Positions 1,089-13,080 of a DNA stretch of 64,000 nt are shown here, in pieces. Each line of letters starts with the position of its first letter. The stretch's first letter is position 1. This DNA comes from an uncultured delta proteobacterium (GTDB lineage Bacteria; Desulfobacterota; Binatia; UBA9968): contig CAVUVW010000014.1 in the NCBI GenBank assembly GCA_963745035.1, positions 672,001 to 736,000 on the forward strand, given 5' to 3'. The notes below the pieces were generated by a model. It did no database searches. It saw only the letters and a program-made list of their open reading frames with translations, and was not told the origin of the DNA. The position numbers and the translations under genes were made by a program.

Positions 1089-1583
1089 CTAAGGGGCAGT
1101 GGCGGCGGGGACAATGACGGAATCGCCGACGCGGATGAGCCCGCCGGAGAGAATATCGGCGCGCAAACCACCGCGGTGAACCAGGCCGCGCAGCGCGCCG
1201 GGCGCGCTTAGACTTTCCAGGTGGGCGCACGGATCGCAGAGCCGCATGCCGCGCAGACGGACTTCGCCGATCACAAATTCGCGGCCGACGAGATGATTTA
1301 ACGCGATCGCGCGCGTGACGATGTTGCGCCGCGCTTGGGCCGGGGAGATGGCGACGCCATAGTCGCGCTCCAAAGCTTCCAATGCCTCGCTCTCGATCAA
1401 GGTGACTTCTCTTCCCGTGCCCGGATGGCTGGAATAGGTGCCAGTTCCATCGTGATAACGATCTCCCCGCAATCCTCTGCCGGCAACGACAAACGCGTTC
1501 GCGATCGACTCCATCGGGGCAGCGCCGGTTCTTGCCACGTGAATCGAAACGATCGTGCCTCGCTCCCTATCTGCGCACGTCAC
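1089..1583 (-). CDS. MOSC domain protein
   Basis: 'GLRGDRY', 'RRNIVT', 'LCDPCAHL', 'RGGLRADILSGGLIRVGD' MOSC motifs. Confidence 0.88.
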   Translation of the reverse strand: MTCADRERGTIVSIHVARTGAAPMESIANAFVVAGRGLRGDRYHDGTGTYSSHPGTGREVTLIESEALEALERDYGVAISPAQARRNIVTRAIALNHLVGREFVIGEVRLRGMRLCDPCAHLESLSAPGALRGLVHRGGLRADILSGGLIRVGDSVIVPAATAP

Positions 1584-2437
1584 CGCTTTTTTGCAACCAA
1601 AGCCGCAAGCTCCGGCGTCTGCATGCTGTCCTTGAGCATATTGCAGGTGCCCTTTTCCAAAATTTCCTGCGCCAAGCGCTTTGTGGCGGTGATCGCCGCC
1701 TTGGTGAAGCCCGATCCGTAACTGACGCGGGCGACGCCAAGATCCTGCAACTCTTTAACGCTCGGTGATTGCGGACCGGCGAGGATGCTAATCGGCGCCT
1801 GGACTTCTTTCGCCACCGTGCCGATTGTTTCAGCCGAATGGAGGAACAGGTAAAAAATGCAGTCGCCACCCGCTTCGGCATAGGCGTTGCCGCGATGAAT
1901 CGCCTCATGGAGCGCCCTCTTGGGATCGTCGGGCATGACGTGGAAGGAGTCAACGCGTGCATTGAGGAAAAACTCGCTGCCAAGCTCGCGCTTGGTTTCC
2001 ATGACCGCTTTGATTTTGCGCAGTTGCTCGGAAAGCTCGACCAATCCGCCCTTGCTTTTCGACGCGCCGTCCTCGAGATTCATCCCGGCTACGCCGCGCG
2101 CCACTAGCGCGCGCACGGTGTCCCTCACGCCGACTTCATCGCCGTAACCGCGTTCGCCGTCGGCATTGAACGGCACGCTCACCGCCGCTGCGAAGTTGCC
2201 GCTGAGTTCAATAAATTGATCCCGGCTCATCATTTCGCCGTCGAGATATCCCACCGCCGCGGCGATGCCGCCGCTGGTGCCTTGAATCGCCTTAAAGCCC
2301 ATCTGCTCGAACAACAGCGCGCTCAAGACATCGTAGGCGCCCGGCATAATCAAAATCTCCGGTGCTCGGACGAGATCTCTGAGCTTCCGGCTTTTTTCAT
2401 TTGCCGCTGCAATCACAGCGGCCGAAACTGTTTCCAT
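1580..2437 (-). CDS. isocitrate lyase/PEP mutase family protein
   Basis: 'PGAYDVLSA', 'NADGERGYG', 'GMNLEDG', 'LNARVD'; ATG 2437 is preceded by GGAGG. Confidence 0.88.
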   Translation of the reverse strand: METVSAAVIAAANEKSRKLRDLVRAPEILIMPGAYDVLSALLFEQMGFKAIQGTSGGIAAAVGYLDGEMMSRDQFIELSGNFAAAVSVPFNADGERGYGDEVGVRDTVRALVARGVAGMNLEDGASKSKGGLVELSEQLRKIKAVMETKRELGSEFFLNARVDSFHVMPDDPKRALHEAIHRGNAYAEAGGDCIFYLFLHSAETIGTVAKEVQAPISILAGPQSPSVKELQDLGVARVSYGSGFTKAAITATKRLAQEILEKGTCNMLKDSMQTPELAALVAKKR

Positions 2438-2558
2438 CACGGCCTCCTTGAATTCAAGTGAATTGTGCCTTGTATCGTAAGGCCTAGGGGTTGCTCGAAG
2501 CAAGCGCTACCGGCTCTGAGAGCCGCACAGTTCGGTGCATGGGCGAAAGAGCAGATGT

Positions 2559-3923
2559 TTAAGATGTGCGCAAAGACGTCGCGTGCCACCGGTCCATGTG
2601 ATAGCGCTCCGTTTCGGAAAGCGCCTCGGCCCGGTAGAAACGGTCATAAAACTCGGTGTCGAGATGGCAGGCTTGAAAACCAAGCACTGTGCGGAAGGGT
2701 GGCATGTACGCGGGAAAGCGACCGTAGCGATTGTAAATATATTCGCAATACGCAGTTGTAGCTTCTACCGCCGCGGAGCTGATTTCGGCGACGGCGTTGG
2801 TGACCGCCGCCGGCTCGCGCCATGCGCTATGCGCCGCGCCGCCGCGGAACAAGCCGCGCGCGCCATATTTCGTTTGAACCACGGCGCGCACGGCTTCTTT
2901 CATGCTCGCGTAGTACGGCGGGCAGTAAGGCTGGAGTAAAATTTCATTGTCCTGTTCCAAGCCCAAAGCATAGGGAACGCCTGGATCGCGCCCGAGAGCG
3001 CGCATCAACCCTCTGGCGAAAGTACCGGCGCCGAAGTACCGGCTCGCCGGCATCTCGGCCATGCGAAATCCGAGAGCCTGAAACCAGGCGAATTCGTGCT
3101 CGGCAAAGTTGGCAAAGCCGCCGAGGCCGATGGCGTGCGACATCAATCCTAAATTTTGCAGCATCATGCCTTGCTCGACGGTGACGAGCTCCGCGACCAT
3201 GAGCTCCAGGCGCTGCACCGTAAACACGCGGCCACCGGCGGGGTCGTCATGCAAATGCCCGCCCTTGCTGCGCGCGAAACGGTCCAGACCAGCGGCGCGA
3301 AATCCCGCGCGCTCGTCAATCACAAATGCGCCGCTATGCTCGTCGAACACGTCGAGCAATCCGTTGATGTACATGAAAGTCAACTCGTTGATCGGCAAAA
3401 AATACGTCGTTCCCGGGGCATACAGAGACCAGCGGTTCACGTTGACGTTGAACATCGGCGCCAGCGGAGGCGCCGCGCGGCCGTCTTTGATCTTGACTCG
3501 CATGCGCCGGTACAGCTCGGTGAACTGCCGCTGCTGCGCTTGGTCGAGCAAGGCGTGAATTTCCTGCGGCGGAAAATCTTGCGGGCGCTTGATCAGGTAA
3601 GCGGCATCGTCGTTGATCACAACCAATGAGACGGTTTGTATGGCGTCGCCGCTGGCGATCGTGCGGCCGAGCGCGCGCGCCACGATGGCACCGCCTTGCC
3701 CTTCGGCAAAGGACAGGTCGAGTAGAGCGAATCCCGTGATGCCGCAGGCGGCGTAAGTCAGCAGCGCTTCTTCTTCCTCGGTCAACGGAAACGAACGGTG
3801 CCGGCTGTCGTAGGCCAGGGGCCCGCTTGCCATCTTCATGCCCAAACCAAAGCGCCGCGAGCGCCGCTTGATCAGCGCGTCGAGGAGCGGATAACCGGCC
3901 CATGGCAGGCTCGTTTCAGACAT
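2559..3923 (-). CDS. large nitroreductase-fold protein of unknown function
   Basis: 'KRRSRRF' and 'EQGMMLQNLGLMSHAIGLGG' resemble nitroreductase FMN-binding motifs; ATG 3923 has a GGGAGG SD. Confidence 0.65.
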   Translation of the reverse strand: MSETSLPWAGYPLLDALIKRRSRRFGLGMKMASGPLAYDSRHRSFPLTEEEEALLTYAACGITGFALLDLSFAEGQGGAIVARALGRTIASGDAIQTVSLVVINDDAAYLIKRPQDFPPQEIHALLDQAQQRQFTELYRRMRVKIKDGRAAPPLAPMFNVNVNRWSLYAPGTTYFLPINELTFMYINGLLDVFDEHSGAFVIDERAGFRAAGLDRFARSKGGHLHDDPAGGRVFTVQRLELMVAELVTVEQGMMLQNLGLMSHAIGLGGFANFAEHEFAWFQALGFRMAEMPASRYFGAGTFARGLMRALGRDPGVPYALGLEQDNEILLQPYCPPYYASMKEAVRAVVQTKYGARGLFRGGAAHSAWREPAAVTNAVAEISSAAVEATTAYCEYIYNRYGRFPAYMPPFRTVLGFQACHLDTEFYDRFYRAEALSETERYHMDRWHATSLRTS

Positions 3924-4017
3924 AGGTACGCCTCCCAACCGGCGTCTTATCACAGATCATGGTGCGAGAGGCTGGGAGAAAAGCTGCCGCAGTAGGCTGT
4001 CCGTCAACGGTGTGTTT

Positions 4018-4086
4018 ACCGTTCATGGTTCGAAAACTTCGAACGGCTCCGCCTCAGCGGTTCGCCTTGGGGCTGTGTCGAAGGAC
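4018..4086. repeat. degenerate REP-like palindrome pair
   Basis: CCGTTC-ATGGTTCGAAAACTT-CGAACGG followed by GTTCGCCTTGGGGCTGTGTCGAAGG in an intergenic gap; resembles REP-type units (from recollection). Confidence 0.4.
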
Positions 4087-4118
4087 TCGCTCGATGATCA
4101 CGACTTTCTTTGGCGAGG

Positions 4119-5714
4119 TCACAAGCGAATCAAGCCGGCGCTCATAAGCGCCTGCCCGGTCAGCCCGATGCCAAAAAACACGATGAATGCTGACGACGTG
4201 AGCGGCAGCCAGCGGGTGAGTAGCTGTCCTTCACCCTGGAACCGTGCCATAAAGCGGCGCGCGTAGACCATCAGCAGCCCAACGGCGATCAGCACGGCAG
4301 CCAAGCCGACGCTAAAGGCCACGATCAGCAACAGGCCGAAGCCGACCCGCTGCAGTGACACCGCGCTCAGCAGGACGACCAGCGCAGCGGGACATGGAAC
4401 GATCCCGCCGCTGATGCCGAGCGTGAGAAGCTCCCGCGGCGACACTGCATGGCGATGATGATGTGAATCGCCATGCGCATGGTGATGGCCATGCCCGGAA
4501 TGATGGTGATGATCCTGATCATGATGACCATGATCAGGACGATGATGTGCCGCTTGTTTCACGCCAAGCCGGCGCACGAACAGAACGATGCCCAAAACGA
4601 TAATCATCACGCCGGAAGTTAGCGCCAGCCAGGGATAAAGTTTCTCCGGCACGACCTGCGCGGATGCGTAAAGCACGATGCCGCCGAGCAGGTAGACTGC
4701 GGCGGTATGCGATGCGGTGACGATAAGCCCAAGAAGCAAGGCGTGCTTCGCCGTCCCGCGGGAGCCGATGAGATACGCCGCCACCAGCGTTTTACCGTGG
4801 CCCGGCTCGAGAGCATGAAACGCGCCGAGGGCGGCGGCGACGAGCAGGGCAAATAGAATCATCGACCAGTTCAACTGTTTGGTCGCGATCAGCTCGGTAA
4901 AAGAATTCTTCGGCGTCAATTGCCGGTTTGGCCGCAGCGCAGGAGCGGGCTCTTCAATGCTAGATTCCGCCGCCTTACTCTCCTGCGGCGCGACGACTGC
5001 GGCAACCGGAACAGCCGGCGCGGCGGCTTTGGCAACGTCCGCGGCGACCGATCGACGGGACGGAACGACTGCGGACGATTCGTTCCTCACCGTTACAGCG
5101 GCACCCCCGACGGCGAAGCTCAATCTCACCTCCAATACCTGCGGTGGTGCATTCAGCAGATCGCTGGGATAGTCCGATAGTTGTGCGCTTTGGTCTTTGG
5201 CCGGCACCGAGCTTTGGATCAACGACGCACCATTCTCGGCGCCGGCGATCACTTCCTTCCAACCCGCGCGCCCGGGGAAATTTCCATCACGATAGAAGAG
5301 CTCGCGGCGTCCGGCCGGAGAATTGTCGAAGCTGCCCTTGAAGACAGTGCCGATTTTCATCGTCGGCAGCGCGCCCGCTCCTTCGGGAAAGAGAATCTTC
5401 CGAGACTCCAGGCGCAGCGGGATTTTTTTGCCGTCCACTTCGAGCTGCAAGCCGTCGCGCAGAGCCGCCGCCTTGCCATCGAGATAACTCGATACGCCGG
5501 GCGCACCGGGCGCCGGCGCAATGCCGTTCTGCTGGATTTCCTGAAAAGTCGGAATCTCCGCCATATCGACGATGTAGCGGAGCTCGACCTCGTCCTTGCC
5601 AACGCGCAGTGCGGAATACTGACTGATACTGAAATTGCCCAGCGGGTGGGCGGAAACGTCGGCGGCCCAGAAAAGCAATAAAGCGATCAAACCGGCCGTC
5701 GCTCGGGCGCGCAT
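4119..5714 (-). CDS. exported domain fused to His-rich Ni/Co transporter (RcnA/NiCoT-like)
   Basis: Signal peptide then 'AHPLGNFS'; C-terminal 'HALEPGHGK', poly-His loop and 'GIVPCPAALVVLL'. Confidence 0.85.
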   Translation of the reverse strand: MRARATAGLIALLLFWAADVSAHPLGNFSISQYSALRVGKDEVELRYIVDMAEIPTFQEIQQNGIAPAPGAPGVSSYLDGKAAALRDGLQLEVDGKKIPLRLESRKILFPEGAGALPTMKIGTVFKGSFDNSPAGRRELFYRDGNFPGRAGWKEVIAGAENGASLIQSSVPAKDQSAQLSDYPSDLLNAPPQVLEVRLSFAVGGAAVTVRNESSAVVPSRRSVAADVAKAAAPAVPVAAVVAPQESKAAESSIEEPAPALRPNRQLTPKNSFTELIATKQLNWSMILFALLVAAALGAFHALEPGHGKTLVAAYLIGSRGTAKHALLLGLIVTASHTAAVYLLGGIVLYASAQVVPEKLYPWLALTSGVMIIVLGIVLFVRRLGVKQAAHHRPDHGHHDQDHHHHSGHGHHHAHGDSHHHRHAVSPRELLTLGISGGIVPCPAALVVLLSAVSLQRVGFGLLLIVAFSVGLAAVLIAVGLLMVYARRFMARFQGEGQLLTRWLPLTSSAFIVFFGIGLTGQALMSAGLIRL

Positions 5715-5718
5715 CGTC

Positions 5719-7029
5719 CTATCTCCCTTCCGCGGATTGAGTCGCGGCGACTCGCGCGCTGTCGCCGTCCATCTGCTGCAGAATTCTCTGCGCCTGTTCG
5801 GCGAAAAGAATATGAAAGTGGGGATTGGTCACGAGCGCGCGGCTTAAAAATTTTCTTGCCTCGTCGAGCTCGCCCAGGCCGTAATGGATCATGCCGGCGT
5901 GAAAAAACAGCTTCGCATCACGGGTTCCGAGCTTGAGCGCTTTATGGATCGCTTCCCGCGCCGCTTTCAGCTCGCCGTTTTTATACAGGTTCCAGGCCAA
6001 GACATCGTATGCGTAGATATCGCGCCGATAGTCCAGTTCCCGCCGGGCCAGCTCCAGGCTTTCCTTCGGATTCATATCGTGATCGGCGTAAAAATAAGCG
6101 AGCTCGCGGTTGTAGAGCGCCTTATTGAGCGCGTTGAGCCTGCCGACGTATTCGACCAATGCGTATTGCTGGCGGGCCAATTCGGGCTTGCCGACTCTCT
6201 CGTAGATCTCGCCTAGCGCTGCGGCGTATTCCGGCATCGGCAAGATCGCGAGCGCTTTTCGATAAAGTTCGATGGCTTCGTCGTACCTTTTCTCCGCCGC
6301 GCGTACCTGCGCCAGGCCGGAGAGTCCACGATAGTAATTGGCATGGGTATCGAGGGATTGCCGAAAACAGGTCTCGGCTTTCTCCAAGTCACCGGCGACG
6401 AAGTGCTCCATACCGAGCTGCCACTCCGCCCACGCGACGCTTTCCGCGGGCTGCTTGGCGATTTTACCAGTGCCAACCGCCCGCTCCAGATCGGCGATCG
6501 CCCCCGCGCTATCACCGCGCAAGCTTTTCAGTCCCGCCAGCCGGCTATAGGAATATAAACTTTGATCCAGCTCCATCATGTAAGCGTAAGCCGCTTGCGC
6601 CTCGGCGTATTGGCCCACCTCCAAGAGCGCGTCGCCCAAGACACCGTAGGCATCGGCGTCTTCGCCATCTCTTTCGATCGCTTGGCGCGCGTAGAGCGCG
6701 GCGGGCGCGAACTCGTGGCGCGAGTAATGGACGTAGGCCAGATGGCGCAGCGCGCCGGCGTTGTGCGGCGCGAGCTGCAAAGTTCGTTTGAGCGCCTCTT
6801 CGGCGCGGTTGAAGTAACTTGGCTCGCCGGTCTCGCGGGCCTTGCGAATGAACGCGTCGGCGAGTCCCAAGTAAACGTTGGCGTTGCGCGAATGGCGCCG
6901 GAGCAATTGTTGGTAGTAAGCGATCTGGTTGTCGGTTCTAATCTGCTGCGCCACCGCTAAATGCGGTGTTACACTGAAAACGCCGAGCAGGACTAGCATC
7001 ATGGTGATCGGGCGTTGCTGGAAGTTCAT
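5719..7029 (-). CDS. exported tetratricopeptide repeat protein
   Basis: Signal-like N-terminus from ATG 7029 and multiple TPR-like helical pairs. Confidence 0.85.
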   Translation of the reverse strand: MNFQQRPITMMLVLLGVFSVTPHLAVAQQIRTDNQIAYYQQLLRRHSRNANVYLGLADAFIRKARETGEPSYFNRAEEALKRTLQLAPHNAGALRHLAYVHYSRHEFAPAALYARQAIERDGEDADAYGVLGDALLEVGQYAEAQAAYAYMMELDQSLYSYSRLAGLKSLRGDSAGAIADLERAVGTGKIAKQPAESVAWAEWQLGMEHFVAGDLEKAETCFRQSLDTHANYYRGLSGLAQVRAAEKRYDEAIELYRKALAILPMPEYAAALGEIYERVGKPELARQQYALVEYVGRLNALNKALYNRELAYFYADHDMNPKESLELARRELDYRRDIYAYDVLAWNLYKNGELKAAREAIHKALKLGTRDAKLFFHAGMIHYGLGELDEARKFLSRALVTNPHFHILFAEQAQRILQQMDGDSARVAATQSAEGR

Positions 7030-7094
7030 CGGGTCGCTCCCTTTTGGAATTGGCCGGAGGGAGAGATCACTCTCCGCTCCGGCATGAGATAACG

Positions 7095-8684
7095 TTACTG
7101 CTCGACGCACGGCGCTCCGGTCGACTGCACGCAGTCGATGTGCCGCCGGCCGCGGCCGTCATAGGGAGTCGGTAGATAGGGAAACTCCTTGGCGATGCCG
7201 TTCAAGGTCACATCGAGGCGGTTGCCGGCGATCATTCCATAGCCCGGCCCGTCACTGACGCCCGCGCCGGGCGCGCCGCCGAGGAAATTGACGCCGTCGC
7301 CGGCCAGACCCGCGATATAGTTGGCGCCGCCGACCACGCGCAACGCGATATCGGTGACATCGTCATTGGGTCGCCGGCCGTTAGGGAATCCGGCCGCATC
7401 GTCGGCCAAACCGCCGAGCCGTTTCTGGTTTTCCGGCTGGACCGGCGCCGCTTTCAAATTGAGGCGCAGCAATTCGGCGCACGGGCTCCCGCAGTTGTTG
7501 CCGCTCAAGGGCTGACCCGTATATTTTAGAAATACGCTCATCAAGTCGGTGCGCGGCGTCGCCGTCACCGGCACGCTGAAGATCAGCTCCAGCGCCAGCG
7601 CGATCGAGGGATTTTTGTAGAACTCCTGGAACTTCGCTTCGCCTTCCGGTTCTTGAGAGTTCCAGAAATCTTTCGCCGAAGTATCGATGATCAGCTCGTT
7701 CACCAGCGGATTGGCCAAGCGCGACACCTGAACCCACGGGCCGGCGAGTTTCGTCGTACCGTCGCCTTTTAACTGCTTGATCTTCTGTTTCGCGGTCGAC
7801 GCATACATGCCGATCACCGCTGCGGCGGTTTGCTCTGCCGACTTGCCGTCCTGGGTGATGCGCGTAATCGGCACCTCAATAACGATGCTGTTCACGTTGG
7901 TGCCGCTGAACCGGTTGATGCCGAACGGATCTCGGCCGTCGTTGCCGTCTTCCGCCGCGCTGAGCAACGGCGGGAAGCGGCGCAGGTTGGCCGTGTCGAA
8001 CACCGCGCCGAGATCAATGTAGAAAGTTTCCGCGCGCTGCCCGGCGAATACTTTGATGCCGGTCGAGGCGTCGCTGTAGACGCCTTGGGACGCCAGGTCT
8101 TCATAATTCTTAAAAGTTGCCGGACCGACGTTGCTCGGCACCGCGATGAGCTTTTGGCCTCTGAACAGCTCGGTGCGCTTTTTGCCCCGCACTTCGGTGA
8201 CCGTGTAGGTTTGCCGGCGGGTCAAGCCCTCGGAACCCGGGCCATCGAGCTTGGTAATTCCTTGAAGCTCGGCGACCGGAATCTTCGGATTGCCGACATA
8301 AGCCAGGGGAAATTCCAGTTGTCCCAACGCCGGCCGGTTTTCCGTCTTGAAGCGAAATTCGTAGACGATGTCCTCCGCCTTGCCGTCCTGATTGTTATCG
8401 ATGTTGACGGTGTACAGCACCTCGTCGTCGAAGTTGAAATAGTTCGGGCCGTCGGCCGGCTCTTGGCCCGGGATCACGTTCATGATGAACACCGCCTTGC
8501 TCGGATCCTGCCAGCTGCGAAAGGCGTAGGTGTCGGTGTTGTCCGCCGCCGGGTCGAGGGCGATGAGCGGTGCCTCCCGATGGCTGGCGGCGCCGGCCGG
8601 CGGAGTCATGGTTGCAAGCGCCATGAGCGCGCTCAGCAAAACAGCGGTGGCCCGATGGATGGGTTTTTTCTTGACGGATTGCAT
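7095..8684 (-). CDS. DUF4331 domain protein (secreted)
   Basis: Signal peptide then 'ASHREAP..DNTDTYAF', 'QVSRLANPLVNE', 'GFPNGRRPNDDVTD'. Confidence 0.85.
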   Translation of the reverse strand: MQSVKKKPIHRATAVLLSALMALATMTPPAGAASHREAPLIALDPAADNTDTYAFRSWQDPSKAVFIMNVIPGQEPADGPNYFNFDDEVLYTVNIDNNQDGKAEDIVYEFRFKTENRPALGQLEFPLAYVGNPKIPVAELQGITKLDGPGSEGLTRRQTYTVTEVRGKKRTELFRGQKLIAVPSNVGPATFKNYEDLASQGVYSDASTGIKVFAGQRAETFYIDLGAVFDTANLRRFPPLLSAAEDGNDGRDPFGINRFSGTNVNSIVIEVPITRITQDGKSAEQTAAAVIGMYASTAKQKIKQLKGDGTTKLAGPWVQVSRLANPLVNELIIDTSAKDFWNSQEPEGEAKFQEFYKNPSIALALELIFSVPVTATPRTDLMSVFLKYTGQPLSGNNCGSPCAELLRLNLKAAPVQPENQKRLGGLADDAAGFPNGRRPNDDVTDIALRVVGGANYIAGLAGDGVNFLGGAPGAGVSDGPGYGMIAGNRLDVTLNGIAKEFPYLPTPYDGRGRRHIDCVQSTGAPCVEQ

Positions 8685-8744
8685 GGTCGATACCCCCTTC
8701 ATTTGCGTTTGTGTTTTTCGCGTCGTTCGCTTGAGCTCGCCGCA

Positions 8745-9989
8745 CTAGTGCTGGGCAAAGCGCTCCGGGAATTGCTTGGCGATCGCCGTGCCGAGCGGAT
8801 CGGCGATCATCGCCATGTGACTGGCGGCCATGCGCAGATTCGCATAGACCTTCTGCCACTCGCGGGCAGCCTGAGCATCGACCACGTCCTTGAGCGTAAT
8901 GATGTGCCCTTTGACCAGCTCGGCCACAGTGTTTTTGGGCAGGTTCGGATTCGCCGAGGCCAAGAATGCGCCGAAGTCCTCGCTGTAACTAATAAGATCG
9001 TTGACCGCCCTATCCTGCTTGGCTTTGTCTTTCGCCGCGAGGCCGGTCGTATAGTCGACGACGAAACCGATGTGCTTGCGCCACAACGGCAGGAAGGCTT
9101 TCTCGGCGTCGGCGCCGTATACCGAGCCGATCGCTTTGGCGATGTCGATGGAATTTTGGTCCAGCGCATTGGCCGCGGCTTTGAACTCCGCTTCGCGGCC
9201 GCCCAGCGCCGAACCCGTGGCCATGGCTGCGATGATCGCATGCTCGCGCAGCGCCATGTTCAGCGTCGTGCGCAAGGTGGCGGCGGGAGCATCCGGCGCG
9301 CCGGGGAACCGATTGGGGAATTGCTTGGCGATCGCCGCGGCAAGGGGATCGCCGATCATCTGCATGTGATGATACGCCGAGCGCGTCGCCGCATACGCCT
9401 TGGGCCAGTCGCCGGCGGCCTGCGCATCGACGACGTCTTTCAAGGTAAGAATATGACCTTTCACCAAATCGCCGACCGCGCTCTTCGGCAGGTGGGGATT
9501 GGCAGAGCTGAGAAACGCGCCGAAGTCCTGGCTGTAGCCGAGCAAATCGGCGACGGCCTTGTCCTGCTTCGCCTTGTCTTTCGTCGCCGCGCCGGTGGTG
9601 TAATCGACAAAAAAGCCGATGTGCTTGCGCCACAAGGGCAGGAACGCTTTCTCGGCGTCGGCGCCGTACACCGCGCCGATCGCCTTTGAAATATCGATGG
9701 AGTTGGCGTCGAGACCGCCGACGGCGCCCTTGAATGCCGCCTCGCGCCCGCCGAGCGCATGACTCGTCGCCACCGCCGCGATCAACACGTGCTCGCCCAA
9801 GAGCGCGTTTAGATTCGATCTGAGGTCTGCCGCCGTCCACTTGGTATCCTTGGCGTCCGTCATTGAGCCATGCATCGAGTGATGTTGCATGGGTCCTGAA
9901 GATCGATCCCAGCCCGTCTGGCCGCAACCCGATGAAACCAGCGCAGCCAAGACCGATCCGCCGATGATTCGTGCAACTTTGCTTTTCAT
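8745..9989 (-). CDS. putative lipoprotein with two tandem ~183-aa helical His-containing domains
   Basis: Lipobox 'LVSSGC'; His/Met-rich 'MQHHSMHGSM'; duplicated unit containing EH, LWRKH, KGH and HM. Confidence 0.8.
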   Translation of the reverse strand: MKSKVARIIGGSVLAALVSSGCGQTGWDRSSGPMQHHSMHGSMTDAKDTKWTAADLRSNLNALLGEHVLIAAVATSHALGGREAAFKGAVGGLDANSIDISKAIGAVYGADAEKAFLPLWRKHIGFFVDYTTGAATKDKAKQDKAVADLLGYSQDFGAFLSSANPHLPKSAVGDLVKGHILTLKDVVDAQAAGDWPKAYAATRSAYHHMQMIGDPLAAAIAKQFPNRFPGAPDAPAATLRTTLNMALREHAIIAAMATGSALGGREAEFKAAANALDQNSIDIAKAIGSVYGADAEKAFLPLWRKHIGFVVDYTTGLAAKDKAKQDRAVNDLISYSEDFGAFLASANPNLPKNTVAELVKGHIITLKDVVDAQAAREWQKVYANLRMAASHMAMIADPLGTAIAKQFPERFAQH

Positions 9990-10022
9990 GTTTTCCCTCC
10001 CGTGAATTGCCCTTTTTTGGAT

Positions 10023-10411
10023 CTAGCGAACCAGCACCTCGCCGCGCATGTGTTCGTGGCGCTCGCAGAAATAGCTGTACGTTCCCGGCTGAGCGAAAGT
10101 GAAGCTGAAGCTCCCGCCTTTGCCGTCCAGGGACGCCGCAAAACCATTTTCTTTTTTCTCGGCGGTGACGGTATGAAGGATCTCGTCTTCATTGACCCAG
10201 CTCACCAAGGTTCCCGGCCTCACTTCGATCCGTCCCGGTTGAAACTGGAAAAGTTTAATCGCCACATTGCCGAGCGGTTGCGGCTTGGCGCCTTCGACAA
10301 CCGCCGCTGGCTTCAGCGGCTCGTCGTCGCATTCGTCATGGCCCAGGCCGGAGCGGCCCACGCCAATATCATCGCCGCCACGGTGGTGAAAACTCTTTGC
10401 CTGCGCTTCAT
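10023..10411 (-). CDS. exported cupredoxin/plastocyanin-like protein (one frameshift near 10340)
   Basis: Signal peptide MKRRQRVFTTVAAMILAWAAPAWA from ATG 10411 (GGAG SD). One extra C would join it to a domain with type-1 Cu ligands 'LHTVT' and 'YFCERHEHM'. Confidence 0.8.
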
Positions 10412-10460
10412 ATCTTCTCCTTTTTTCTGTTTGCCGACCCGCGCTGCCTTCTGTGGTGCT

Positions 10461-10488
10461 CTACGGCTGGATTCGGGAACTTGGATTT
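10461..10488 (-). promoter_or_regulatory. putative ECF-sigma promoter for the cupredoxin operon
   Basis: Minus strand AAATCC-N17-CGTAG, about 50 nt upstream of ATG 10411. Confidence 0.6.
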
Positions 10489-10534
10489 GGCGCAGCAAAC
10501 TTTTCGGCGTGAAAAGAATTTTCTTGGATCGAAT

Positions 10535-10562
10535 AAATCCAAACCGCCGGGTCCGAACGTAG
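10535..10562 (+). promoter_or_regulatory. putative autoregulatory ECF-sigma promoter
   Basis: Plus strand AAATCC-N17-CGTAG upstream of the anti-sigma/sigma genes; same motif and spacing as the divergent copy. Confidence 0.6.
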
Positions 10563-10636
10563 GTAATACAGGCGCGGTTTGCGCCGTTCGATCGAACCCG
10601 GTTATAGTGGCCCGGCTCAATCGAACAGGTTGGCCT

Positions 10637-11194
10637 ATGGATCACGACAACTGGTTGGATTTAGTGGATATTTACGCTGCAGGCGCATTGGACGGCGACG
10701 AACTTAGCCGCTTCGAGGCGCATCTCTCTGCGGGCTGCCTGCAATGTCAGGCGCGTATTCGCGAGACTCGGGAAGCGCTGGCAGGCTTATCGGCCACGCT
10801 TGAACCGATCACCCCAGCAGACTCGGTTAAGGCAAGGCTCTTGGAGCGCATCGACTCCGAAAAGCCGGGCTTGGTCTACATTCCCGCCAACGAAGGCAAA
10901 TGGATCGACGTCGAGCCTGGAATTGTCGCTAAGATCTTAAACCTGGATACCGAACGGGGGCAGGTCACGGCCCTTGTGCGCATGGCGCCCGGTTCAGCCT
11001 ACGCCGATCATCGCCATCTGGGAACGGAAGAGGTTCTGGTCCTGGAGGGAAGCTGCTATTGCGGCGGGCGCCTGCTGCGGCCGGGCGACTATCACCGCGC
11101 CGAGGCCGGCAGCATTCATCTCGACACGCGCACCGACGAGGGTTCGCTCATGCTGGTCACCGCGCCGCTGCAAAAGGAAATGCTTGCGACCTGA
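10637..11194 (+). CDS. zinc anti-sigma domain + cupin (ChrR-like) protein
   Basis: 'YAAGALD..FEAHLSAGCLQC' followed by a cupin 'HRHLGTEEVLVLEG..GSIH'. Confidence 0.85.
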   Translation: MDHDNWLDLVDIYAAGALDGDELSRFEAHLSAGCLQCQARIRETREALAGLSATLEPITPADSVKARLLERIDSEKPGLVYIPANEGKWIDVEPGIVAKILNLDTERGQVTALVRMAPGSAYADHRHLGTEEVLVLEGSCYCGGRLLRPGDYHRAEAGSIHLDTRTDEGSLMLVTAPLQKEMLAT

Positions 11195-11237
11195 CTCCAG
11201 TGATAGCACGTACGCTGATTCAATCGGAAGATCGGTG

Positions 11238-11801
11238 ATGACTGTCGAATCAATGAGCAGTTCTATTTCTTTGATTCAAAGAATCGGCGCCCAAAACCGC
11301 GACGCGTTCAGCCAGTTCTACGACCGCTATTCCCCGATCGTATATTCCCTGGCACTGCGCATGCTGAGAGCGCAATCCGATGCCGAAGATCTGCTGCAGG
11401 AAGTCTTTCTGCAAGTGTGGCGCCAGGCCACAGCCTACAACGCCGAGCGCGGCAGCCCGGAGGCTTGGTTGATCAACATCGCGCGCAGCCGGGCAATCGA
11501 TAAGCTCCGTTCCATACGTAGAAGAGAAAGAAGCTTTGTTTTGACCGATGATCCGGCCGCGGCGGAATCGCCGGACAACGTGGAAACGTCCGCTGGAGAA
11601 TCGGAAACTCGCTTGGCGATGAACAGCGCCCTGGCAAGTTTACCGGAAGCGCAGCGGCGCGTGCTCGAGTTGGCTTATTTTGACGGCTTGAGCCAGACGG
11701 AAATCGCCGCTCGGCTGGCGGAGCCGCTGGGAACGGTCAAAACCAGAATGCGCTCGGGGATTCTGCGTCTAAGAGGTATGCTTGGAACCCAGGCTGCATA
11801 A
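11238..11801 (+). CDS. ECF RNA polymerase sigma factor (SigK-like)
   Basis: 'DAEDLLQEVFLQVW', 'WLINIARSRAIDKLR', 'LAYFDGLSQTEIA..PLGTVKTR'. Confidence 0.92.
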   Translation: MTVESMSSSISLIQRIGAQNRDAFSQFYDRYSPIVYSLALRMLRAQSDAEDLLQEVFLQVWRQATAYNAERGSPEAWLINIARSRAIDKLRSIRRRERSFVLTDDPAAAESPDNVETSAGESETRLAMNSALASLPEAQRRVLELAYFDGLSQTEIAARLAEPLGTVKTRMRSGILRLRGMLGTQAA

Positions 11802-12534
11802 TGGCCACCGAACATGAACATTGGCGCGAGTGTAGCGACATCTACGCCCTCGGCGCGCTCGATGGCGAGGAACTGAAGAATTTTCAAGCTCATCTCGCCA
11901 CCGATTGCCCGACTTGCGAAGCCTACGTTCGCGACAGGGGCGAAACTCTGAACTTGCTGCACCGTTCGCTCCGCCCGTTGACACCGCCATCTGCCGTAAA
12001 GGCGCGCATCCTCCATCAGATCGATAACGATGCAGCGGTATCGATCGCTGCAAGAACATCTTCGCGCCCGCAGCTTTGGCGTCGCATGGCGGGAACCATC
12101 GCCGCGGCAATAGCGGGCGTCGTTCTCGCCGGCGGCTACTTCCATTTTCGCTACGAGCCGCGCCATACGGTTTATAGCGCCGTCGTCAATCTGTTGCGCG
12201 ATCCGTCGACTCGAGATCTACCGCTCCACGGCGCCGGACCGACACCGCAGGCAAGAGGACGTTTTCTCTGGAACGCATCGGGCGAAGGGCATATTTTCGT
12301 GACCAATCTTCCCGCCGCGCCGACGGGAAAAATGTACGCGGTCTGGACCATCGCGCAAAGCGCGGCGCCGCGTTACGTCGGCACGGTCAAGACCGATGCA
12401 GCGGGCCAAGGCGGCCTGCACATCAACACAGCGGACAATGAGGTCCCGTGGAAACCTTTGCCGTCACCCTCGAGCCCGACGGCACCACTGCCGCGCCCAC
12501 CGGTCCCATGGTCCTCGTATCGAAGCAGTCGTAA
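11801..12534 (+). CDS. RskA-like membrane anti-sigma factor (one frameshift near 12445)
   Basis: 'HLATDCPTC', one TM helix, 'MYAVW'. The alternative frame supplies the RskA-type end 'FAVTLEPDGTTAAPTGPMVL', stop at 12534. Confidence 0.85.
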
Positions 12535-12567
12535 ATCTGCATTGCGCTACGTTCACGTCCGCTAAAT

Positions 12568-13080
12568 TCAAAGATCACGAACATGATCAGGCTCTTCGGT
12601 TTTCCGAGCTGTTGACCGTTGCCTGTTGCCTGCCGCCTTCTTCCAAACCATTTTCCGATGGGGAATGCCGGCTTCTAGGAAAACCGGGCCGACGCAGACG
12701 AAACCCAGCTTCTCGTAGAAACCGATGACGGGAATTTGAGCGTGGAGATAAATCTGCCGCGCGCCAAGACGCCGCGCCGCAGCCACCGCTTGTTTGAGCA
12801 GCTTCGCCCCAACGCCCTGATGTCGAAATGATTTCAGCACCGCCATGCGCCCGATCTTCGCGCTGTCACGGCGCAGCACGAGGCGAGCCGTTCCCACCGC
12901 CCGGTTCGAGGCCAATGCGATGAAATGCCGCGCGCGATGATCGTCGTCGTCGAGCTCGATCTCCGGCGGCACGCCCTGCTCGCGCACAAAGACGCGCATG
13001 CGGATGGCGAAAGCCCGCGCCTTTGCCTCCTCCGAAGAAATCTGTTTAACCTGAAGCGTTTTCACAGACTCGCGACTCAA
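12568..13080 (-). CDS. GNAT N-acetyltransferase (ElaA/YjcF-like)
   Basis: 'RMRVFVREQGV', 'KIGRMAV', 'LHAQ..FYEKLGF..EAGIPH'. Confidence 0.9.
   Translation of the reverse strand: MSRESVKTLQVKQISSEEAKARAFAIRMRVFVREQGVPPEIELDDDDHRARHFIALASNRAVGTARLVLRRDSAKIGRMAVLKSFRHQGVGAKLLKQAVAAARRLGARQIYLHAQIPVIGFYEKLGFVCVGPVFLEAGIPHRKMVWKKAAGNRQRSTARKTEEPDHVRDL

Follow-up and report, generated by a model that had tools for sequence, protein, structure and literature searches.

A candidate ECF-controlled envelope metal module around the DUF4331 protein of a Candidatus Binatia genome

What does the exported protein DUF4331 (Pfam PF14224) do, and which of the genes around it belong with it? The question was raised by a stretch of 64,000 nucleotides (64 kb, called the window throughout) from a 7.4-Mb draft genome (28 contigs, 92.6% complete, 5.8% contamination), the nearest public relatives of which are Candidatus Binatia metagenome-assembled genomes (MAGs) with DUF4331 proteins up to 92% identical. 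A first-pass annotation, made from the sequence alone, had described five minus-strand genes, that of DUF4331 among them, divergent from three plus-strand genes for an extracytoplasmic function (ECF) sigma factor and two anti-sigma factors, and had read the five as one self-contained envelope metal module that matures DUF4331. All eight genes were found at the positions and on the strands it had given. The five-gene operon is a three-gene core of DUF4331, a tetratricopeptide repeat (TPR) protein and a permease, to which a cupredoxin and a His/Met protein are optional additions; the idea of one five-gene module held for the core and had to be modified for this pair, present in only 8 of 80 loci compared. 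From the sequence comparisons below, the region would be an ECF-controlled envelope metal hand-off module serving DUF4331, a reading to which we give a probability of roughly 45%. The features concerned are, in order along the window:

4119..5714, minus strand: NicO/RcnA-like inner-membrane permease (PF03824, 61.8 bits)
5719..7110, minus strand: periplasmic TPR partner of DUF4331 (multiple TPR families)
7095..8702, minus strand: DUF4331 protein (PF14224, 377.4 bits, E 1.4e-112)
8745..9989, minus strand: lipoprotein-like His/Met two-repeat protein of 414 residues (no Pfam or NCBIfam match)
10023..10361, minus strand: cupredoxin domain (PF00127, 44.2 bits)
10313..10411, minus strand: signal peptide of the cupredoxin (MKRRQRVFTTVAAMILAWAAPAWA), in another frame and ending at a TGA
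10462..10487, minus strand: candidate ECF-type promoter AATCC-N17-CGTA facing the cupredoxin-to-permease operon
10536..10561, plus strand: candidate ECF-type promoter AATCC-N17-CGTA facing the anti-sigma/ECF/anti-sigma operon
10637..11194, plus strand: soluble ChrR-like anti-sigma factor (Cupin_7, 74.3 bits)
11238..11801, plus strand: ECF sigma factor (TIGR02937, 114.8 bits)
11801..12565, plus strand: membrane RskA-like anti-sigma factor (RskA_C, 37.7 bits; NF052375, 104.1 bits)

Eighty loci encoding DUF4331 relatives 53-92% identical to the window protein were fetched (cited below by L numbers). Their six-frame open reading frames (ORFs) were scanned with the window proteins and then with profiles built from the partner genes, the identity of which had been fixed beforehand by Pfam on 35 proteins. 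The 39 loci in which DUF4331 has 4 kb or more to either side are referred to as well-flanked. In most loci the DUF4331 gene was followed by that of a TPR protein of one specific family and then by that of a membrane protein of about 380-450 residues. Both partners lay within 6 kb of DUF4331 in 32 of the 39 well-flanked loci. The permease of these full triads was of the HupE_UreJ_2 type in 22 and of the NicO type in 10, the NicO membrane domain taking the place of HupE_UreJ_2 in Binatia, Methylomirabilota, Rokubacteria and a few others. The following genes were found near DUF4331:

TPR partner (family-specific profile): 65/80 loci, 33/39 well-flanked
HupE_UreJ_2-type permease: 44/80 loci, 22/39 well-flanked
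NicO-type permease: 14/80 loci, 10/39 well-flanked
ECF sigma factor: 30/80 loci, 18/39 well-flanked
ChrR-like anti-sigma factor: 20/80 loci, 11/39 well-flanked
RskA-like anti-sigma factor: 6/80 loci, 5/39 well-flanked
Cupredoxin: 8/80 loci, 4/39 well-flanked
His/Met protein: 8/80 loci, 4/39 well-flanked

Co-inheritance was assessed in 24 genomes of the same genus and 16 of the same order. Within the genus, DUF4331, the TPR partner (E <= 1e-20) and the full-length permease (E < 1e-100) were each found in 9 of 24 genomes; none of the 16 others had DUF4331. The triad was adjacent on a single contig in eight of these 24 genomes; the two exceptions to adjacency (G151 and G172) had their matches at contig ends, and the remaining 14 genomes contained none of the three genes. 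Upon exclusion of the unpublished genome G155, each core gene was present in 8 of 23 genomes and all three in 7. Of 151 genomes across the phylum searched with the Pfam model, the only one with a strong DUF4331 match was that of the window, where the gene is single-copy. DUF4331, the TPR partner and the permease are gained and lost together within the genus. The first-pass annotation had proposed a survey of DUF4331 gene neighbourhoods, and in the one made here the three genes both co-occur and are co-inherited.

At about 35% identity, the triad recurs on annotated plasmids. A Streptomyces anulatus plasmid (L090, record positions 76602-91813) carries DUF4331, a 'tetratricopeptide repeat protein' and a 'nickel transporter', beyond which lie another DUF4331 gene and those of a sortase and a fasciclin-domain protein. 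On a Marinobacter adhaerens plasmid, DUF4331 is followed by two hypotheticals and then by a HupE/UreJ family protein. Fasciclin proteins are targets of SigK in mycobacteria. They are also listed as conserved context of ECF18 subgroups in the supplement of Casas-Pastor et al. 2021 (PMC7826278).

The link to the sigma factor lies in the divergent intergenic region of 226 nt, which contains AATCC-N17-CGTA on both strands. Three matches to this motif were found in the window against 0.25 expected, the divergent pair accounting for two of them. Of 73 loci with sequence flanking the operon start, 19 had the motif (N16-17) no more than 250 nt away from it on the coding strand, compared with a background rate of 0.013 per 500 nt of strand. 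These 19 include every one of the ten Binatia and Methylomirabilota loci with such flank. In relatives AATCC...CGTA also precedes the ECF operon on the opposite strand. These observations support a tie between the DUF4331 operon and the ECF gene through a conserved divergent pair of candidate promoters, and the ECF control put forward in the first-pass annotation was strengthened accordingly. A genome-wide scan for AATCC[AG]-N16-CGTA gave 31 matches, the motif holding too little information to define a regulon. Gaps between the minus-strand genes range from -16 to 42 nt, and a scan for sigma-70 promoters and terminators gave counts at or below the shuffled expectation, none of which convincingly splits these genes. 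In some Nitrospirales loci a PEP-CTERM or cytochrome P460 gene stands between the ECF genes and DUF4331 (L013:9085-9957, L059:9009-9938, L022:8596-9345, L059:7871-8425). AATCC...CGTA was seen upstream of the intervening gene in L013, L034 and L073, this being the PEP-CTERM gene in L013.

The sigma factor itself (188 residues, no Cys, flanked by two different anti-sigma genes) matched TIGR02937 with 114.8 bits against a cut-off of 42.9, Sigma70_r2 with 72.5 bits and Sigma70_r4 with 49.8 bits. Its best match was PRK12519 (184 bits, cut-off 222), and SigK (PRK09646/NF007228) gave 165.7 bits (cut-off 226), both below the cut-offs; a place in the ECF18/ECF19 (SigK-like) neighbourhood is probable. 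The start codon of the RskA-like anti-sigma gene overlaps the stop codon of the ECF gene by one base, and its product scores 37.7 bits with RskA_C (cut-off 29.4) and 104.1 with NF052375 (cut-off 100). The ChrR-like protein consists of an N-terminal anti-sigma domain with H-x4-C-x2-C and a cupin with an H-x-H-x3-E...H set. It matched Cupin_7 (PF12973) with 74.3 bits (cut-off 27) and zf-HC2 with 19.8 bits, below cut-off; with 32.4 bits, the match to the full-length ChrR model TIGR02451 fell short of the cut-off of 124.5.

In the supplement of PMC7826278, CGTA is the predicted -10 element of ECF11 and ECF18, DUF4331 is listed in the conserved context of ECF18s13 and ECF214s1, and the ECF18 member RpoP of C. 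metallidurans is given a role in nickel/cobalt resistance. The same source describes a redox-sensing conserved Cys pair for ECF18/19, which is absent here since the sigma factor has no Cys, and reports ChrR- and RskA-type anti-sigma factors from oxidative-stress responses.

The DUF4331 protein matches PF14224 with 377.4 bits (cut-off 27), the match spanning positions 2 to 421 of the 421 in the profile. Sixty-three full-length proteins, 34-87% identical to that of the window, were aligned; H41, the sole invariant histidine, P45, D57 and a P-N-G-R-R..D-D block are among the positions without variation. All 63 carry [A/G]-[S/A]-S-H-R-E-A-P directly after a hydrophobic leader, the window reading A-S-H-R-E-A-P. 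The residue three before the histidine is Ala in 54 and Gly in 5 of the 63, the one five before is mostly small, and the preceding residue is Ser. Given small residues at -1 and -3, a cut by signal peptidase I would leave X-S-H..., with the histidine third in the mature protein. On this predicted cut the mature end fits the pattern of amino-terminal Cu(II)- and Ni(II)-binding (ATCUN) type, with His at position 3 and no Pro at position 2, and is a candidate metal site. The N-terminal S-H-R-E motif singled out in the first-pass annotation is thus essentially invariant and stands at the predicted mature N-terminus.

The same motif was found within the first 120 residues in 118 of 150 representatives of the DUF4331 family, the rest being mostly fragments or near variants. 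Nine of the 150 start with M-[ST]-S-H-[RM]-E-A-P. Removal of the initiator Met, which we assume, would give these leaderless proteins the same N-terminus as the exported forms.

A predicted model of DUF4331 (predicted local distance difference test (pLDDT) 83.9, predicted template modelling score (pTM) 0.86) has a beta-sandwich core, long insertions and a helical C-terminal part; it is disordered before His41 and ordered from about residue 41. Foldseek gave no match in the PDB at E <= 0.001, and the best hit of VIA-align wide (Sas6, Z 7.3, 212 residues aligned, root-mean-square deviation 5.1) was within the noise range of the tool. The two six-helix bundles modelled for the His/Met protein (pLDDT 85.2) had no Foldseek match, and their best VIA-align wide hit (Z 9.1), a designed six-helix barrel, stayed under the tool's caution level for helical bundles; the lack of fold matches does not make either fold new. 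Sequence searches of the PDB with DUF4331, the His/Met protein and the permease yielded nothing below E = 0.1. A complex prediction for DUF4331 (residues 39-535) with the TPR partner (55-463) scored 0.00, which is evidence neither way.

Leaderless DUF4331 proteins provide a natural control. A metagenome scan with a leaderless query gave 80 further loci, in 60 of which the start codon stood directly before [ST]-S-H with no hydrophobic leader. Neither a TPR partner nor a permease was found beside any of these 60, nor in the 16 with at least 3 kb on both sides, and a Pfam scan around them showed nothing recurrent; an ECF sigma gene was near in 6 of the 60. The same scan brought up twelve exported cousins with a leader ending in ...A|SSH, of which eight had the TPR partner directly downstream (confirmed by Pfam in four exported cousins) and the remaining four had less than 350 nt of flank. 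The TPR partner tracks the export of DUF4331. This suggests that DUF4331 is the functional protein and that the TPR protein, and the permease, are extracytoplasmic helpers; the existence of leaderless forms without these partners argues against DUF4331 as a mere uptake-binding protein. The leaderless subfamily (L091-L157) starts with M-S-S-H-R-E-A-P, and in many of its members a stop codon precedes the start by one to three codons.

Of the helpers, the TPR protein probably has its start codon at 7029 (ATG; MNFQQRP...), and a signal peptide comes after it. The permease consists of a signal peptide, a periplasmic N-domain of about 260 residues and a NicO/RcnA-like membrane domain with a His-rich loop of 33 residues. 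The NicO match (61.8 bits, Pfam cut-off 27.7) falls in two stretches flanking this loop, and the RcnA model of NCBIfam (PRK10019, NF007454, 'nickel/cobalt efflux transporter') gave 138.6 bits. HupE_UreJ_2 (PF13795) did not match the window permease; in 12 related partner permeases scanned it scored 128-174 bits. The predicted mature end of the window permease is a histidine (..VSA|HPLGNFS), and Ala|His was found at the predicted cut in 58 of 61 partner permease or N-domain ORFs of relatives (54 by pattern, 4 by eye), the exceptions being two that read ...RA|DTVASLLGNF and one fragment. The mature ends are H-P-L-G-N or H-K-[AP]-S-D-S-Y-L.

No Pfam match was obtained for the N-domain of the window. 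The HK[AP]SDSYL type matched DUF6702 with 25.3 bits (cut-off 24), and an EF-hand-like loop was noted in HupE-type N-domains, by weak EF-hand matches and by eye. Searches of the ESM Atlas with the permease N-domain and one His/Met repeat led to unnamed clusters, the nearest named one being DUF1007 (0.77), a lead only. The HPLGN-type N-domain sits on a NicO membrane domain in the window and on HupE_UreJ_2 in L027, L044, L049 and L055, and both membrane families retain intramembrane His, Asp and Glu. By domain content, the membrane part of the permease is interchangeable between two Ni/Co-type families.

Which metal would be handled? For the core, nickel or cobalt is favoured: both permease families are of the Ni/Co type, and that of the window is RcnA-like with a His-rich loop. 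In a survey for extra transporters, covering 128 of 227 neighbouring ORFs of at least 110 aa, L008 and L012 had a classical NicO protein within or next to the module (E 1e-76 and 3.9e-88), and L055 a HupE_UreJ protein after the triad. Copper is possible in the window lineage, given the complete type-1 cupredoxin site, the Met/His-rich linker of the His/Met protein and the cupredoxin fusions of its family. An N-terminus of the form X-X-His would suit Cu(II) as well as Ni(II), and the conserved acidic residues of DUF4331 seem to fit neither particularly well. Genes for CbiM, CbiQ and an ATP-binding cassette (ABC) ATPase, a cobalt/nickel importer of the ECF type, lie between a NicO-type permease and DUF4331 in a proteobacterial MAG (L060:6899-9816). 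Pointing to copper, L036 has a tyrosinase close to the locus and L039 a small metal-binding protein.

The module would operate as follows. The ECF sigma factor would be held by the soluble ChrR-like and the membrane-bound RskA-like anti-sigma factors and, once freed, would drive the two divergent AATCC-N17-CGTA promoters, one for its own operon (autoregulation) and one for the five-gene envelope operon. The permease would move a divalent transition metal across the inner membrane, with nickel or cobalt favoured for the core and copper possible; in the RcnA-like version the transport is most likely outward. The metal would then pass via the N-domain, with its histidine at position 1 (His-1), to the processed N-terminus X-X-His of DUF4331, an amino-terminal site of the Cu/Ni type. 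The TPR protein may be a periplasmic assembly partner, and DUF4331 would be the end product that carries out the function, be it as a metalloenzyme or by holding metal. In the window lineage the cupredoxin and the His/Met lipoprotein would have been added, probably as a copper-dependent pair for electron transfer or copper buffering. The proposal of the first-pass annotation, a metal module maturing DUF4331, thus gained from the co-occurrence of the core, the promoter and the motif, and had to be modified in that the copper pair is optional and the permease domain swappable.

A more far-reaching version seems doubtful. In it, DUF4331 would be a new class of metalloprotein with a site made by exposing the N-terminal X-X-His, through signal peptidase or, in leaderless forms, through removal of the initiator Met. 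The exported form would need a periplasmic metallation line of its own, namely a Ni/Co-type permease with a His-1 hand-off domain and a TPR assembly factor under an ECF stress sigma factor. If true, this would be a dedicated pathway for extracytoplasmic insertion of nickel (or copper); to our knowledge, no general system for such insertion has been described.

Several observations weigh against a hand-off module. The full triad is missing in 7 of the 39 well-flanked loci (L029, L041, L045, L061, L068, L071, which has the TPR partner only, and L072), a Jannaschia plasmid has DUF4331 next to type II secretion genes without the triad, and the exported cousins L159, L161, L169 and L170 have the TPR partner with no adjacent permease. 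In DUF4331 the invariant residues besides His41 comprise Asp, Asn, Arg, Gly and Pro but neither Cys nor another His, a set that appears to suit Ca2+ or substrate binding better than a nickel or copper centre; the invariant R-E-A-P after the histidine suggests a structural segment and not a free amino-terminal peptide. The 138.6 bits of the permease are below the NCBIfam RcnA cut-off of 195, so that it is RcnA-like only, and homology between the HPLGN and HK[AP]SDSYL N-domains was not demonstrable (hhalign probability 2%). RcnA exports and HupE imports, so that the transport direction suggested by one permease family is opposite to that suggested by the other. In addition, the assembly has the cupredoxin domain in a frame other than that of its signal peptide.

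Among the alternatives, metal acquisition survives best, and we hold it unlikely. DUF4331 would capture periplasmic nickel, cobalt or copper and feed it to the His-1 N-domain and the permease for import, with the ECF system switched on by metal shortage and, in some species, a TonB-dependent receptor bringing the metal in. What keeps this alternative alive is the majority of HupE-type permeases (22 of the 32 full triads) and the co-located importer-type systems, these being the CbiM/CbiQ/ABC genes of L060, the classical NicO of L008 and L012 and the HupE_UreJ protein of L055. TonB-dependent receptors were found directly after the triad in L066 and L070, and the ChrR-like anti-sigma factor has a complete set of cupin metal ligands and could report cytoplasmic metal. 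However, leaderless and hence cytoplasmic DUF4331 proteins keep the same N-terminus, which would be senseless for a periplasmic binding protein, and the window permease, with its His-rich loop, resembles the RcnA efflux model most. A protein of 500 residues with its own TPR partner is also unlike the binding proteins of secondary transporters. Loading of DUF4331 is therefore favoured over uptake, since the leaderless forms lack both partners and the window permease is RcnA-like.

It is quite unlikely that no transition metal is involved and that DUF4331 is an exported protein, either a Ca2+-dependent enzyme or a surface protein, that is induced under envelope or oxidative stress, with the TPR protein as a chaperone or anchor and the permease-like protein serving for Ca2+, another ion or anchoring. 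The conserved residues of DUF4331, mostly Asp, Asn and Arg and including a DxNxDG-like loop, would agree with this, as would the canonical EF-hand-like loop of HupE-type N-domains and the beta-sandwich core, the best weak matches of which are carbohydrate-binding modules (Z <= 7.3, at noise level). The truncated globins of L006, L010, L011 and L063 and the cytochrome P460 of L022 and L059 fit a redox theme, and ChrR/RskA-type anti-sigma factors are known from oxidative-stress responses (PMC7826278). On the other hand, two Ni/Co-type permease families, both with intramembrane His, Asp and Glu, have been recruited to the same place and further Ni/Co transporters are co-located. The N-terminal histidine is invariant in DUF4331 and in the permease N-domain, and copper proteins have been added in the window lineage.

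A third alternative is that of two systems on one promoter, in which the cupredoxin and the His/Met protein would be an independent pair for copper handling or electron transfer, inserted between the ECF gene and the triad. The cupredoxin domain scored 44.2 bits with PF00127 (cut-off 21.2), and its type-1 copper ligands are complete (H...C-x2-H-x2-M, read as LHTV ... C-E-R-H-E-H-M); the copper site claimed for it earlier is thus present with all four ligands, His, Cys, His and Met. The amicyanin model TIGR02657 gave 41.6 bits, below its equivalog cut-off of 110.2. The first-pass annotation had assigned export signals to all five proteins, which is not the case for the cupredoxin: its signal peptide starts at the ATG at 10411 (MKRRQRVF...AWA) in a frame other than that of the domain and meets a TGA at about 10313.

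Upon DNA alignment with the intact gene of L002, the window was found to be one base short near 10347-10348, and the cupredoxin gene is one open frame in eight relatives. In metagenome run X1 one contig ends at 10347 and another begins at 10350, and in runs X5 and X19 79 other letters replace 10346-10422; public metagenome contigs break or diverge at 10345-10350, and the site is strain-variable. The frame break may well be an artefact of assembly or strain mixing, or may be a real frameshift. In the six Binatia-type relatives the mature cupredoxin starts with His, followed by acidic, Cys or His residues (e.g. ...VLG|HDECDD in L002).

The His/Met protein (8745-9989) is lipoprotein-like and has a Met/His-rich linker and two repeats of about 183 aa, each a six-helix bundle. 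In its alignment E66/H67, W120/H123, H179 and H208/M209 are invariant, with equivalents in the second repeat. It had no match in Pfam or NCBIfam; its family comprises 2387 matches at E <= 0.001 among 8000 candidates scored, with cupredoxin fusions in 5 of 120 listed homologues. Family members occur with one, two or three repeats or fused to a C-terminal cupredoxin, and some carry C-terminal anchors of the membrane or sortase type (variants observed in P0077, P0082, P0088, P0097, P0118, P0001 and P0109). The JGI name 'copper chaperone CopZ', given to 8 of the 120 listed homologues, lacked Pfam support and was not used.

Two independent systems would account for the presence of the pair in just 8 of 80 loci, all titled Binatia or Methylomirabilota, for the close relatives L003, L006 and L010, which lack the pair and keep promoter and triad, and for the size of the His/Met family with its sortase-anchored forms. 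Against this, the His/Met protein was present in 5 of 24 same-genus genomes (4 of 23 without G155), always directly beside DUF4331, and in none of the 15 same-genus genomes without DUF4331. The pair also lies inside the operon, downstream of the ECF-type promoter and with gaps of 33-42 nt. We regard two unconnected systems as improbable. Lanthanide handling, an idea from the methylotroph and nitrifier hosts and the EF-hand-like loops, was set aside, the family being present in Streptomyces and Pseudoalteromonas and the permeases being of the Ni/Co type.

The unit, with a G+C content of about 60%, was delimited to about 4119-12565, since its neighbours are unrelated housekeeping genes, namely those for phosphoenolpyruvate (PEP) mutase, MOSC, GNAT, a luciferase-like oxidoreductase and ProRS. 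The PEP-mutase (window 1580-2503) and GNAT (12568-13080) genes also border the module in L003, L004 and L006. This recurrence places the module at a conserved chromosomal spot, where it is carried by only 9 of the 24 genomes of the genus. In four Binatia-type relatives (L006:14690-15163, L010:14771-15244, L011:14669-15028 and L063:3976-4449), the gene right after that of the permease encodes a truncated bacterial-like globin; at that place the window has an ORF of 464 aa without Pfam match (2559-3953, minus strand). An Rfam search at E <= 1 over 3800-12900 found no riboswitch. Contigs from two RNA libraries, of two studies, match parts of the permease, TPR, DUF4331, His/Met and anti-sigma genes, some without mismatch, and one extends upstream of both predicted starts. 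Because DNA carry-over is possible and upstream DNA is covered, these contigs are no proof of transcription or co-transcription, and gaps in their coverage carry no meaning.

The DUF4331 family is large, matching 4912 representative clusters (E <= 0.001) of a library built at 50% identity, and by record titles its hosts include nitrifiers, methanotrophs, Binatia, Paraburkholderia, Streptomyces and marine bacteria. Among the full texts searched no paper on 'DUF4331' or 'PF14224' was found, in agreement with the earlier statement that it is without established function, and searches with the themes HupE, anti-sigma, TPR and ECF gave nothing relevant to the triad. The sole mention was in one supplement, the only supplement file searched, that of PMC7826278, in which no function is given and the triad is not described. 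With its three-gene context, its regulator and promoter motif, one candidate metal site and the leaderless forms as natural control, the function of this widespread family has become directly testable. If the hand-off model is true, a dedicated permease supplies an extracytoplasmic protein with nickel, cobalt or copper, and two unrelated permease families have been swapped into one pathway.

Comparison with known systems starts with regulation. CnrYXH of Cupriavidus metallidurans is similar in that an ECF sigma factor and a membrane anti-sigma factor control an adjacent envelope metal system; its target is an RND efflux pump for nickel/cobalt resistance, not DUF4331, TPR protein and permease, and its anti-sigma proteins are different. 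CnrH moreover belongs to another ECF group, ECF291 (PMC7826278). Also comparable are ECF18/ECF19, in which, according to the same source, the ECF gene is followed by one for a one-helix anti-sigma factor resembling RskA, and the -10 element is CGTA; a soluble ChrR-like anti-sigma factor, as found here, is reported for ECF19s19. The sigma factor of the window differs in its scores below the SigK and PRK12519 cut-offs, its lack of Cys, its two anti-sigma genes and its -35 element, AATCC and not TGCATCTT.

The candidate metal site resembles ATCUN sites and the nickel hook of NiSOD in having a free N-terminus at a fixed distance from a histidine. In DUF4331 the residues after the histidine are also invariant and begin the ordered part of the model, and the cut is a predicted one. 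CopC-CopD and YcnI/YcnJ have a His-1 periplasmic domain fused to or paired with a membrane permease, and their metal site, an N-terminal histidine brace, is created by cleavage of the signal peptide, as would be the case for the predicted His-1 N-domain of the window; no sequence or Pfam relationship with them was found, and their membrane domain belongs to other families.

As in hydrogenase and urease operons with HupE/UreJ, the gene of a secondary metal permease stands beside that of its presumed client. The permease of the window is of another family, its presumed client is exported and not cytoplasmic, and the triad permeases carry a periplasmic N-domain, DUF6702-like in some. The best NCBIfam match of the permease is the RcnA model, and with RcnA/RcnB, the nickel-cobalt efflux system of E. 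coli, the locus shares the NicO-family membrane domain, the His-rich loop and a periplasmic partner encoded alongside. It differs from RcnA/RcnB by the extra N-domain of about 260 residues starting with His, by DUF4331 and the TPR protein as partners in place of RcnB, and by its candidate control through an ECF sigma factor instead of RcnR.

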